A program made the position numbers and the translations under genes. This document shows positions 24,430 to 32,876 of a DNA stretch of 51,144 nt, piece by piece (within the stretch, counting starts at the first letter, position 1; each line of letters begins with the position of its first letter). Origin of the DNA: Candidatus Fervidifonticultor quintus (GTDB lineage: Bacteria; Sysuimicrobiota; Sysuimicrobiia; Sysuimicrobiales; Humicultoraceae); contig JAVKIJ010000012.1 in the NCBI GenBank assembly GCA_031459535.1, positions 1 to 51,144 of the forward strand, given 5' to 3'. The notes beneath the pieces were generated by a model. That model worked only from the letters and a program-made list of their open reading frames with translations. It was not told the DNA's origin and ran no database searches.

Positions 24430-24936
24430 CTACCAGAGGTGAGCGAACTTGGCGGCGAATCGCCGCTCCAATTCCTCGCGATTCAAGTTGTAGACCGGGC
24501 AGTCACGTAGCATGCAGACGTGGAGCGCCTGGTTGCAGTACGCCTCCTCTATTTCCCAGCAGGAGTGGTTGACGTAGTACGCCGCGCACACGCCCTTCCG
24601 CGGGTGCACACCAGAGGCGTCCGGGGGAATGCCGTAGACCGGCGCCACCTTCGGGACGCCGGTCGCCGGTACCGGCTGGGGCGCTTCTGGCGCAGGCGTT
24701 GGCGGTGCGCTCTCTGTGGCCGGCGCCAGCACCGCCTCGGGCTCGGGCACAGGGCGTGGCCTCACCAGCGGTTCACGGACCAGCCTCAGAATGGGCCGGT
24801 CATCCCGGTCGGCTGTCGTCTCCTCCGGTCTCGGCTCGGTCGCCGACCCCTCGGTGGACAGTGCCTCCATCTCGCGCGAGGCCACCTCGATCAGGTGCCT
24901 AACGCCGCGCCGAAGCTCCTCGCGCCCCCTTGGCAT
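24430..24936 (-). CDS. Hypothetical protein: amphipathic N-terminal peptide, Pro/Glu-rich linker, C-terminal 5-Cys (CW-type) domain; probable ParA partner
   Basis: ATG preceded by GAGGTG and overlapping the parA 3' end; C-terminal CAAYYVNHSCWEIEEAYCNQALHVCMLRDCPVY. Confidence 0.8.
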   Translation of the reverse strand: MPRGREELRRGVRHLIEVASREMEALSTEGSATEPRPEETTADRDDRPILRLVREPLVRPRPVPEPEAVLAPATESAPPTPAPEAPQPVPATGVPKVAPVYGIPPDASGVHPRKGVCAAYYVNHSCWEIEEAYCNQALHVCMLRDCPVYNLNREELERRFAAKFAHLW

Positions 24937-25714
24937 GGGCGATCACCTCTTGGGCAAGACTGCCGTACTCCCGGGCGCCACGAGACTCGGGGTTGGTCAC
25001 AAACAGGGGTACGCCCTTCATGGACGACTCCACCAGCTTGATGTTGAAGTGGATCGTCGACTGGAACACCTTGTTGGGAAAGAAGTCGTGAATGCCGGCG
25101 AGGATCTCCTTGCTGATGGTCGTGCGGGAGTCGTACATGGTGGGGAGCACGCCCAGGATTTCCACGTGATGACCCACTTCCTCGCGCACCATCTTGAGCG
25201 TCTTGAGGAGCTGCCGCATGCCCAGCAACGCGTAGTAGTGGGTCTGAATCGGGATAATGATGGAGTCGCAGGCGACCAGGGCGTTCAGGGTAAGCAACCC
25301 CAGCGACGGCGGCGTGTCGATCAGGATGAACTCGTACCGGTCCCGGACGGACGCGATGCGCCGCCGCAACGAGTTCTCCCGGCCGATGCGGGCAGCCAGC
25401 TCCAGCTCGGCTGCGGCCAGATCGATGGATGCAGGCGCCACCTCCAGCCGTTTCACGTTCGTCGGCCGGATTACCGCGGTCAGCGCCAGGCCCCCCTCGT
25501 GGTCGGGGTCCACCAGGACATGATAGATCGTCCGCTCCTGCGTCGCGGGGTCCACGCCCACGCTGATCGTGGCGTTGGCCTGCGGATCCATGTCCACCAG
25601 GAGCGTCGGATAGCCCGCCGCTGCCAGGGAGGCACTGAGATTGACCGCAGTCGTGGTCTTGCCGCAGCCTCCCTTTTGATTGACCAGGCCGATGACCAGC
25701 GCCTGCGTGTTCAA
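24899..25714 (-). CDS. parA: ParA/Soj family ATPase (orphan, no adjacent parB)
   Basis: Deviant Walker A NQKGGCGKTT, switch I DMDPQANAT and Walker B IDTPPSLG; TTG start after GGGAG. Confidence 0.92.
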   Translation of the reverse strand: MNTQALVIGLVNQKGGCGKTTTAVNLSASLAAAGYPTLLVDMDPQANATISVGVDPATQERTIYHVLVDPDHEGGLALTAVIRPTNVKRLEVAPASIDLAAAELELAARIGRENSLRRRIASVRDRYEFILIDTPPSLGLLTLNALVACDSIIIPIQTHYYALLGMRQLLKTLKMVREEVGHHVEILGVLPTMYDSRTTISKEILAGIHDFFPNKVFQSTIHFNIKLVESSMKGVPLFVTNPESRGAREYGSLAQEVIAHAKGARGASARR

Positions 25715-25869
25715 CGCCTGCTCCCATCACAGGACCGAACTGGGAATACGATCATCCGTTCGCCTGCCTGTTCGACCCCATCAAAACAATATCCTCTCGG
25801 GGGATTTCCTTCGGCACGGAGAGGGGTAGTGGTTGCATCAGACTGCATACGGCTGGAGGGGGTGGGTGT

Positions 25870-27002
25870 ATGCGGGTCACGGTGAGTGTGATCAAGGCGG
25901 ATATCGGCAGCGTGGGCGGCCATACGCTCCCGAGCCGCGAGGTACTGGAGTGCGTCCGGGGTCAGGTGATGGACGCCGTGGGCGCGCTGCTCCTGGACGC
26001 CCATGTGGGTCACACGGGGACGACATCTGCCTGGTCATGAGTCACACGCACGGGGTCGCCGATCCCCGGGTACACGGGCTCGCCTGGGCCGCATTCAACG
26101 CAGGCGCGGACGTCGCCAGGCGGCAGGGGCTGTACGGGCCCGGGCAGGATCTGCTCAAGGATGCGTTCTCAGGTAACGTGCGCGGACTCGGCCCCGGGTC
26201 GGCGGAGATCGAGTTCGACGAGCGTCCCAACGAGGCGTTCATGGTGCTGTGCGCCGACAAGACCGAGCCGGGCGCCTTCAACCTGCCCCTGTACCTGACG
26301 TTCTCCGACCCCATGTATTCACCAGGCCTGCTGCTCTCGGAACCGCTTCACGATGGGTTTCGGTTCCGCATCATGGACGTAGACCACGACGCCGGCGAGC
26401 GAACCATCGTGCTGGACGCTCCCGAGCGGTTGTACGACATCGCAGCCCTGCTCCGTGACACTCATCGGTTCGTGGTGGAAGCCATATGGTCGCGGTGCTT
26501 CCCAACGGAGCAGGCCGCCGCGGTCTCCACCAGCCGTCTGCGCAACATCGCCGGCAGGTACGTGGGCAAGGACGATCCGGTGGCCGTGGTGCGGGTGCAG
26601 AAGATCTTCGCGGCCACCGAAGAGTTCGGGCCGGCCTTTGCCCTCGGCCAGTTCGTGGCCGGGGACGCGCGCGGCAGCCACCACTTGCCGCTGATGCCGG
26701 TCCCCATGAACACGCCGGCGTCGACGTTCTTCTGCTGTCCCATGGTCTCGGCTCTGGGGTTCTCGATGCACGGCGGCCGACTGGCGGCGGTCACCGACCT
26801 GTTCGCCGACCCGTTCTGGTCCCACGTGCGGGACCAGGTGGCGGCCAAGGCCATGGAGATGCGCAAGCAGGGGTTCTTCGGCCCGGCCATGCTGCCCATG
26901 TCCGAACTCGAGTACGGCGGGATTGTCGCGCGCCTGCGTCGTCTGGAACGGGAGTTCAGTGTGGACGCCCACCACCCGGCCGGGCAAGCTGTCCGAGGCT
27001 AG
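25870..27002 (+). CDS. fbp: Fructose-1,6-bisphosphate aldolase/phosphatase (class V FBPase), interrupted by a 1-nt frameshift near 26016-26019
   Basis: The frame from ATG 25870 reads MRVTVSVIKADIGSVGGH...HVGHTG and stops at 26040. The -1 frame continues GDDI..., LYGPGQDLLKDAFSGNVRGLGP, DKTEPGAFN, YVGKDDP and MLPMSELEY. Confidence 0.9.
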
Positions 27003-32685: not shown

Positions 32686-32689
32686 CATC

Positions 32690-32876
32690 GTTCTCCGCAG
32701 TGCCGTGCAGGCCATAGCCCCCGAACCCTACTCTCGTAGGTGGGTGCCTCCCGACCGCTTCGTCCGCCCGCGGATCACGCGCAGACCCCGTACACGGTCG
32801 GAGGTGGGCTCCCGGGCATGATGTGTTGGATCGGGACTATCGGCCCGCCTCGCACACCGCAGAGAACCCTCTGCCC
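32690..32876 (-). ncRNA. ssrS: 6S RNA
   Basis: About 185 nt; terminal stem GUUCUCUGCGGUG/CACUGCGGAGAAC; internal GGGAGC...GGCACCCACCU...AGGGUUC motifs typical of Firmicutes 6S; own promoter; classic position after aspS and near rarA. Confidence 0.85.

Follow-up and report, generated by a model that had tools for sequence, protein, structure and literature searches.

A ParA-type ATPase and its cysteine-rich partner: a candidate positioning pair conserved across an uncultured bacterial phylum

Gene content of the locus

We analysed a 51,144-nucleotide (nt) stretch of the Candidatus Fervidifonticultor quintus genome (assembly GCA_031459535.1, contig JAVKIJ010000012.1, positions 1 to 51,144; hereafter the window), in which two overlapping minus-strand genes encode an orphan Soj-type ParA ATPase and a small cysteine-rich protein (hereafter the partner; Table 1). 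An initial annotation, made from the letters of this DNA, had proposed the pair as a nucleoid-positioning module, and the motifs on which it drew can be read in the window: KGGCGKTT, TMYDSRT and IHFNIKL in the ATPase, MPRGREELRRGVRHLI and C-x8-CW-x6-C-x6-C-x4-CPVY in the partner, together with the 38 nt (24899-24936) that are common to both open reading frames (ORFs).

This overlap measures exactly 38 nt, as in the window, in 45 of the 46 loci compared (L035 being the sole exception), and GAGGTGAT or a near variant of it precedes the partner start, inside ParA codons, across the compared loci. Read in the partner frame, residues 5-11 (REELRRG) are invariant in all 46 pairs. Variation in the ParA tail falls on the first positions of its codons, where the partner has its wobble positions; thus, selection acts on the partner frame. 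Within the explanation that we favour below, we infer that the two genes form a translationally coupled operon. Short contigs from one RNA library (X4; 95-99% identity) lie over 24575-24802 and 25116-25740 and would fit expression of the two genes as RNA in a closely related strain (DNA carry-over being possible, and uncovered stretches carrying no meaning).

Upstream of parA, the element AGGATAT-N12-GGGTCGAAC forms an island of invariant columns within otherwise unconserved intergenic DNA; it is present in 12 of 45 loci in addition to the window (GTCGAACA by itself in 21 of the 45) and is nearly unique within the genome. It is probably a promoter or an operator: it resembles a sigma-H-type -35/-10 pair, an operator being equally possible. 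No sigma-70-like promoter and no intrinsic terminator were found between 24200 and 26000, and the Rfam scan gave no match in the ParA/partner locus.

Table 1. Features of the ParA/partner locus (coordinates are those of the window).
Feature	Coordinates	Strand	Evidence
Orphan Soj-type ParA ATPase, deviant Walker A KGGCGKT (271 aa, TTG start)	24899..25714	-	ORF listing of the window, Pfam, PDB, tree
Partner, putative adaptor (168 aa plus stop, ATG start)	24430..24936	-	ORF listing of the window; 158 relatives; no Pfam/NCBIfam family
Partner residues 1-29, amphipathic helix with ParB-like motif	24850..24936	-	AlphaFold2, motif counts
Partner residues 30-111, disordered Pro/Ala/Glu/Gly-rich linker	24604..24849	-	Low model confidence, composition
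Partner residues 112-168, compact five-Cys 'CW' domain with H-L-W end	24433..24603	-	Model confidence, conservation, hhalign
Overlap of 38 nt coding for both the end of ParA and partner residues 1-13	24899..24936	-	Locus comparison
Shine-Dalgarno-like GAGGTGAT within ParA codons, 5 nt before partner ATG	24942..24949	-	Sequence
Upstream element AGGATAT-N12-GGGTCGAAC, 55 nt before ParA start	25770..25795	-	Conservation

Distribution and co-conservation

The partner was detected in 91 of 94 genomes of the phylum, in all 54 high-quality genomes and in all 31 genera, the three genomes without a match being 65-72% complete. The initial annotation had made its proposal depend on the partner being co-conserved with ParA, and this is what we observed: a ParA orthologue lies immediately upstream in 47 of 49 loci (on contigs representing one genome per species), the partner sitting at a contig edge in the other two, and by coordinate comparison the two genes are adjacent in 28 of the 29 genomes that are at least 96% complete. 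In the exception (G092) the partner lies 375 nt from the contig start. These counts include two unpublished genomes (G016 and G024), without which they read 89/92 and 27/28.

Searches of much larger collections returned 158 relatives of the partner from a set of 5.8 billion proteins and 67 matches, of which 57 reached an expectation value (E) <= 1e-10, from 1.84 billion cluster representatives, and none, by tblastn, on 72,556 plasmids or 50,697 phages. The records of the named relatives are uncultured metagenome-assembled genomes labelled Armatimonadota, CSP1-3, Fervidifonticultor, ANGP1 or simply 'bacterium', and the Atlas cluster of the partner is labelled Sysuimicrobiota. ParA and its partner thus belong to the core genes of a single uncultured phylum, which the record labels identify as CSP1-3/Sysuimicrobiota.

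The flanking genes are of housekeeping type (rarA, mnmA, ytxH, cca, FBPase, HAD, asnS, rimP, nusA, ylxR, infB) and differ between genomes in content and orientation (FBPase and HAD are present in some and absent from others, asnS inverts), with the pair remaining constant. In a nearly closed genome of the same family (G001, ~3.2 Mb), a single contig carries dnaA at 1,033,942, parB at 1,026,368 and the orphan parA-partner locus at 2,690,206, which places the latter ~1.66 Mb from dnaA/parB and hence roughly opposite the origin. Over the window itself the GC skew shows no switch.

The orphan ParA and its Soj paralogue

The ATPase matches Pfam AAA_31 (6.5e-56, 189.5 bits) and CbiA (81.7 bits), both above their cut-offs, whereas its match to Pfam MipZ is limited to the P-loop (residues 7-45) and its NCBIfam scores fall far under the MinD, RepA and SopA cut-offs (e.g., 45.2 bits for TIGR01968 against a cut-off of 212.9). 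Its closest match in the PDB is the Myxococcus xanthus ParA (8ray_B, 5.5e-56), with Thermus thermophilus Soj also recovered. The Walker A motif reads N-Q-K-G-G-C-G-K-T-T (residues 12-21), with K14 and K19 invariant in 36 sequences; according to passages of a published account, a deviant Walker A KGGxxK[ST] with a signature lysine defines the ParA/MinD ATPases (PMC11407121). By motif and full-domain profile the protein is accordingly assignable to this group. As an aside, residue 17 within the motif (about 25664-25666) is Cys in at least 90% of the orphan ParA orthologues and Val in the Soj proteins of the phylum.

The initial annotation had reported neither parB nor parS near the pair and had anticipated a separate parAB locus close to the origin. 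Such a locus exists on another contig (C9), where rsmG, Soj and ParB lie in a row ~4.6 kb from dnaA (a fragment at the contig edge); this Soj matches AAA_31 at 1e-60 and the ParB is complete, with ParB_N, HTH_ParB and ParB_C. It provides the only ParB_N match in the assembly, which is 89% complete, so that the window contains no ParB domain, and it has no parS-like site at up to 3 mismatches to the parS consensus. The same consensus gave no site in the whole assembly at up to 2 mismatches, a result of little weight as contig C9 is only 8.2 kb long, and one for which missing sequence or divergence of the site is the probable cause. ParB was found in 33 of the 34 phylum genomes that are at least 95% complete; the one miss (G002) is without Soj and also without rsmG, which indicates an assembly gap and not a loss. 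The other P-loop relatives encoded in the genome are ArsA/Get3-like proteins (3), Mrp/ApbC (1) and tyrosine autokinases (2), along with two further 255-aa P-loop proteins that score far under the MinD cut-off. From this inventory it follows that the orphan ParA is the only non-Soj positioning-type ATPase found in the genome.

The orphan ParA is 45% identical to the Soj of the same genome. In a quick IQ-TREE run on 35 orphan ParAs and 28 Sojs the two groups split on one branch (Shimodaira-Hasegawa-like approximate likelihood ratio support of 100), and the orphan clade had the shorter branches; its members are 69-89% identical to the protein of the window, while Soj orthologues are 54-79% identical to the Soj of the genome. 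Tree and identities together mark the orphan ParA as a separate paralogue with a slower rate of evolution than that of Soj.

Twenty-three alignment columns are at least 90% fixed within each group and differ between the two. They cluster beside the peptide pocket and on the DNA face, at 158-166 (Q-T-H-Y-Y-A-L-x-G-M in the orphan ParA versus Q-C-E-Y-Y-A-L-E-G-L in Soj), at 175-184 and at 222-232 (H-F-N-I-K-L-V-E-S-S-M versus P-R-S-x-R-L-A-E-A-P-S), so that both the surroundings of the pocket and the DNA face are paralogue-specific. The loop that follows Walker B (P-P-S-L-G-L-L-T) is identical in the two groups. In the available passages of a preprint on M. xanthus ParA, the ParB peptide contacts L150, G151, L152 and L192, and an R238E variant was used in binding assays (bioRxiv 10.1101/2025.03.14.642875); we read R238, from those same passages, as a DNA-contact residue. 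By alignment (offset 19), the four contacts correspond to L138, G139, L140 and V180 of the orphan ParA and R238 to K226, which indicates that the canonical peptide pocket is intact. Among the basic residues that the initial annotation had placed at the usual DNA-binding positions, R197 is kept and K226 occupies the position of R238; one Soj arginine is replaced by Phe223. The C-terminal tail (H-A-K-G-A-R-G-A-S-A-R-R) is not amphipathic, unlike the membrane-targeting helix of MinD-like ATPases, and has a mean net charge of +2.6 across loci.

The helix and linker of the partner

Two alignments of the family (A1 and A2) and an AlphaFold2 model built on A2 (mean predicted local distance difference test score (pLDDT) 70.1, predicted template modelling score 0.36) agree on a partner made of a helix, a disordered linker and a compact domain. 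The helix (residues 3-29, pLDDT 78-93) has a hydrophobic moment of ~0.68 and a core that reads R5-E-E-L8-R-R10-G11-V12-R13-x-L15-I16, for which the family pattern is R-x-x-L-x-R-G-[VIL]-x-x-[LF]-I. The resemblance to the ParA-stimulating peptide of ParB, from which the initial annotation had started, is borne out by the ParB of this genome (RRALGRGLGALI, R-R-A-L-G-R-G-L-G-A-L-I) and by all 28 ParBs of the phylum that were compared ([RK][RK][GA]-L-G-[RK]-G-L-x-x-L-[IL]): L-x-R-G-aliphatic-x-x-L-I is common to both kinds of protein, with the same hydrophobic spacing (i, i+4, i+7, i+8) and a central Arg-Gly, and relative to ParB the partner swaps two Gly for Arg and gains two Glu. Within the family the core is exact in 140 of 171 proteins and carries one conservative change in 17, the remaining 14 being N-truncated gene calls; together with the invariance of residues 5-11 in the 46 pairs, this answers the doubt whether the peptide would be conserved. 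According to the passages of the preprint at hand, the ParB motif is an aliphatic helix with R or K at its centre, which docks on ParA at the four residues given above (10.1101/2025.03.14.642875), and excerpts of two reviews depict the partners of ParA/MinD ATPases as diverse, often unidentified, and acting via a charged N-terminus (PMC11407121, PMC10241942).

The Pro/Glu-rich and disordered nature that had been ascribed to the linker agrees with the model (residues 30-110, pLDDT ~50). Across the family the linker varies in length from 39 to 271 aa and consists to ~55% of P, A, E and G. It carries a mid motif (D-R-P-I-L-R-L-V-R, residues 46-54), which recurs as R-P-x-L-x-L-[VI] in 105 of 147 proteins and is missing from the long forms of one family (f4). 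The long-linker partners of f4 (200-355 aa, e.g., P0124 and P0178) have Arg/Lys-rich stretches just before the Cys domain.

The five-cysteine domain and its relatives

The C-terminal domain comprises 57 residues modelled as short helices (pLDDT 74-92), and its five cysteines lie within 30 residues, with no CxxC knuckle. A CW motif (C126) falls within the final 50 residues of 169 of the 171 family proteins. Among these 169, C117, C141 and P147 are kept throughout, C134 and C146 in 168, Y149 in 164 (F in the other 5) and His166 in 163; the terminal residue is Trp in 167, and in 168 CW lies exactly 43 residues from the C-terminus. His139 is variable (H in 130, Q in 38, E in 1).

An already characterised family unrelated to ParA, the outcome that would have spoken against the initial annotation, did not emerge from Pfam, NCBIfam or the PDB. 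Neither the partner nor its 112 aligned relatives in A2 matched a Pfam or NCBIfam family (Pfam on all 113 members of A2 gave noise), sequence searches of the PDB with A2 and with a second alignment, A4 (see below), returned nothing below E 0.49, and the C-terminal domain matched no solved structure. In the ESM Atlas the domain had no named match (template modelling score <0.5); the whole partner recovered its own cluster and, as an unconfirmed lead, a Chloroflexota hypothetical protein (score 0.76).

An exhaustive profile search yielded four weak matches confined to the C-terminal domain (E 2.5e-6 to 1.2e-4 library-wide), each being a small Cys-rich protein in which a module occurs once or twice, with the pattern C-W-E ... 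C-x-A-Y-x5-C-W-E-V-x3-P-C-x6-C-x4-C-P-V-Y. When the alignment of such stand-alone CW-module proteins (A4, a small group of 15 proteins at E <= 0.01) was compared with A2 by hhalign, the two matched over 48 columns (probability 97.7%, E 2e-12), the five Cys as well as CW and CPVY all being aligned with each other; by this profile comparison, the C-terminal domain is distantly homologous to the stand-alone proteins. The sole recurrent family signal of the A4 proteins is NCBIfam NF045718 ('two_CW_domain'), which stays sub-threshold (5 of 18 distinct sequences, E 6.7e-5 to 0.12, at best 23.2 bits against a cut-off of 35) and from which the partner differs in being without the first CW motif and one Cys. 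The partner itself did not match NF045718 at E up to 1, the genome scan having hit an unrelated place at 12.6 bits, and the absence of this family from the 61 phylum genomes scanned is uninformative as the control matched nowhere. Our literature search found no paper using the term 'two-CW domain', and hence no function that could be transferred.

The stand-alone CW proteins (63-290 aa, loci L062-L071, ten metagenome loci) have no ParA nearby. On high-GC contigs they adjoin a CobW-type (metallochaperone) GTPase with DUF5714/CMD, and on low-GC contigs they follow ribE-ribBA-ribH and precede either an Fe/Mn superoxide dismutase with a multihaem cytochrome or CheW-CheW-MCP. To judge from these relatives, the partner resembles a ParB-like helix and linker that have been fused to a pre-existing CW module, which is presumably metal-binding.

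Proposed function

Our best explanation, to which we assign a probability of roughly 60%, is that the pair represents a second ParA-type positioning ATPase with its cognate activator and adaptor. ATP-bound dimers of the orphan ParA would bind the nucleoid via R197, K226 and the basic 12-residue C-terminal tail, and the loop after Walker B, shared with Soj, would form a pocket in which the helix of the partner docks, its Arg10 taking the role of the Arg/Lys of ParB. Docking would stimulate ATP hydrolysis and free ParA from the DNA, and the flexible linker (40-270 residues) would tether the helix to the compact five-Cys domain, which is probably metal-bound and may self-associate or bind a cargo. 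Most likely, the partner is a new adaptor for the positioning of something essential in the cell, and the pair is best understood as a motor of known type served by a new family of adaptors, and not as a categorically new system.

As the pair occurs throughout the phylum and lies amid housekeeping genes, its cargo must presumably be common to every member. Microcompartments were rejected as cargo: bacterial microcompartment shell genes (PF00936) occur in 1 of the 61 phylum genomes that are at least 90% complete and are absent from this one, so that the analogy with the carboxysome system McdA/McdB, which the initial annotation had invoked, fails as regards cargo. Our favoured candidate, weakly held, is the division site or the FtsZ ring, a guess made because MinC (0 of the 61 genomes), MinD (above its cut-off in 0 of 17) and mostly DivIVA (above its cut-off in only 3 of 17) are missing from the phylum; MinE was likewise not found in this genome. 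FtsZ is present in 33 of 34 near-complete genomes, and we attribute the lack of an FtsZ_C match in the present 89%-complete assembly to an assembly gap. By analogy, a pair that is universal in a phylum devoid of Min would fit a role in division-site placement or chromosome organisation of the PomXYZ/MipZ kind. A more specific version, in which a nucleoid-riding ParA would substitute for Min and the Fe-S (iron-sulphur) or Zn CW domain of the adaptor, with its H-L-W end, would recruit or mark the FtsZ ring or another core machine, is put forward as speculative and unlikely; if true, division or segregation would be tied to the redox or metal state of the cell.

Several observations weigh against the positioning explanation. 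The motif pattern is rare in the genome (11 occurrences in 18,062 six-frame ORFs, 3 of them within 40 residues of the start), but it was written after the sequence had been seen, and its rarity therefore overstates its significance. The helix spans 27 residues with a continuous hydrophobic stripe and could serve oligomerisation; the Phe that replaces the DNA-face arginine of Soj (P-R-x-x-R) means that nucleoid binding is not assured; and the stand-alone relatives of the Cys domain, having no ParA nearby, show that the domain by itself carries no positioning signal. Furthermore, no cargo gene is linked to the pair, its neighbourhood being conserved housekeeping synteny that is silent on cargo, and the division-site idea is wholly an argument from the absence of other systems.

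Alternative explanations

The partner might instead be a centromere-binding analogue of ParB (type Ib-like), with the Cys domain acting as a zinc-type DNA-binding domain, in a second DNA-segregation system that serves, for example, an origin-distant region. The arrangement of peptide, linker and small C-terminal domain matches that of type Ib proteins such as ParG, as far as these are described in passages of the M. xanthus preprint (10.1101/2025.03.14.642875), the C-terminal domain is mildly basic (mean net charge +3.1, range -1 to +7), a conserved and nearly genome-unique DNA element lies upstream of parA, and the locus in G001 is roughly antipodal to dnaA/parB. Yet that element is single-copy and restricted to 12 of 45 loci, no iterated repeat array or centromere-like iterons surround the operon, the partner matches no helix-turn-helix (HTH) or ribbon-helix-helix (RHH) family, relatives are absent from the plasmids and phages searched, and the stand-alone homologues of the domain adjoin metal/redox genes and not genes for DNA handling. 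We regard this explanation as unlikely.

Decidedly unlikely, in our view, is a partner that works as a metal- or redox-sensing switch with no separate cargo, in which an Fe-S or Zn centre would gate a helix that activates or sequesters ParA; the output of ParA could then be replication initiation, nucleoid organisation or division licensing tied to redox or metal status. Five near-invariant Cys within so short a stretch, distant homologues that adjoin a CobW-type GTPase or a superoxide dismutase and multihaem cytochrome, and the two_CW_domain as the one family matched (sub-threshold) by those homologues would all suit a sensor. The metal, however, is putative, no solved structure matches the domain, the neighbours of the distant homologues differ between lineages, and the fixed H-L-W end resembles a docking motif more than a sensor.

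It is quite improbable that the N-terminal helix is an oligomerisation (coiled-coil) element and that the partner, co-expressed with ParA, acts on another target. The layout would then resemble that of small helix-linker-Zn-domain regulators such as YabA. In favour, the amphipathic helix bears a hydrophobic stripe (8, 12, 15/16, 19, 23, 26), and VIA-align matched residues 1-43 to single helices and coiled coils (Z <=3.3). A generic coiled coil would have no need of the invariant R-G core and its ParB-identical spacing, though, the overlap with parA is exact and invariant over the phylum, and no Pfam YabA match appeared among all the families scanned. Finally, that ParA and the partner are mere neighbours with no functional link, in a slowly rearranging housekeeping region (rarA-mnmA-ytxH-cca-...-asnS-nusA-infB being syntenic across the phylum), is scarcely credible when both flanks vary and the 38-nt overlap stays constant.

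Comparison with known systems

With chromosomal ParABS the pair shares a Soj-type ParA, the pocket loop PPSLGLLT and the ParB-type motif of the partner; it differs in that the partner matches no ParB/Srx (CTPase), HTH or dimerisation domain, no parS-like site lies in the window, the true soj-parB is located elsewhere and 23 residues separate the two ParA groups. McdA/McdB is similar in combining a ParA-type ATPase with a small, mostly disordered and length-variable adaptor that acts via its N-terminus. In the passages of a McdB study considered here (PMC11321042), McdB carries an invariant C-terminal tryptophan, which the partner recalls by resemblance only, and no folded Cys-rich domain is reported for the McdB proteins described there, whereas in the partner the Trp closes a folded domain.

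PomXYZ and MipZ are ParA-like ATPase systems that, according to excerpts of the relevant papers, position FtsZ by means of the nucleoid and N-terminal-peptide activators, in bacteria not dependent on Min (PMC7993993, PMC13170346, 10.1101/766287); the likeness is one of description (a phylum with FtsZ, without MinC/MinD and mostly without DivIVA), and a link to FtsZ would be pure conjecture. From MinCDE the pair is set apart by the low TIGR01968 score of its ATPase and by the missing MinC and MinE. Type Ib (ParF/ParG-like) systems are, as portrayed in the passages cited above, likewise two-gene operons with a small partner that has an activating tail, a flexible region and a small C-terminal domain, but the present locus is chromosomal, a core pair of its phylum and equipped with a full-length Soj-type ParA, and no RHH domain, repeat array or plasmid or phage relatives were found.

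No relevant report of a ParA-like ATPase with a cysteine-rich or Fe-S adaptor was found in the literature, and term searches of two papers on the phylum (PMC11604079, PMC11962464) gave no mention of ParA, FtsZ or partition. In most 'orphan' ParA/MinD systems it is the partner that is missing from the picture. The present one is unusually clean: a single, universally conserved family that joins a readable (putative) helix for ParA binding to a folded Cys domain via a tunable linker. It is tied to its ATPase by the constant dual-coding overlap, and throughout the phylum it occurs alongside a canonical ParAB in which ParB bears almost the same peptide. If the more specific version given above, with its substitute for Min, is true, the partner would represent a new class of ParA-activating adaptor, in which a ParB-mimicking helix is fused to a metal domain that is free-standing elsewhere. 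The two ParA paralogues also constitute a natural experiment on how a cell distinguishes two look-alike peptides, the 23 group-specific residues by the pocket being candidates for the discrimination. The pair moreover opens a way into the cell biology of an uncultured phylum that has FtsZ but neither MinC nor MinD and mostly no DivIVA, and for the first time it places the uncharacterised CW/two-CW cysteine module in a genomic setting.

Other features of the window

The divergent FBPase gene (Pfam FBPase_3, 25833-27002, plus strand) is split over two frames with a break near 26013-26037: profile positions 1-50 are found at 25870-26037, and the frame of 25833-26999 encodes positions 49-360. Such a split denotes a frameshift, due either to an assembly error or to a pseudogene. 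The only Rfam match of the window is a full-length 6S RNA (RF00013, 69.5 bits) at 32688-32868 on the minus strand.

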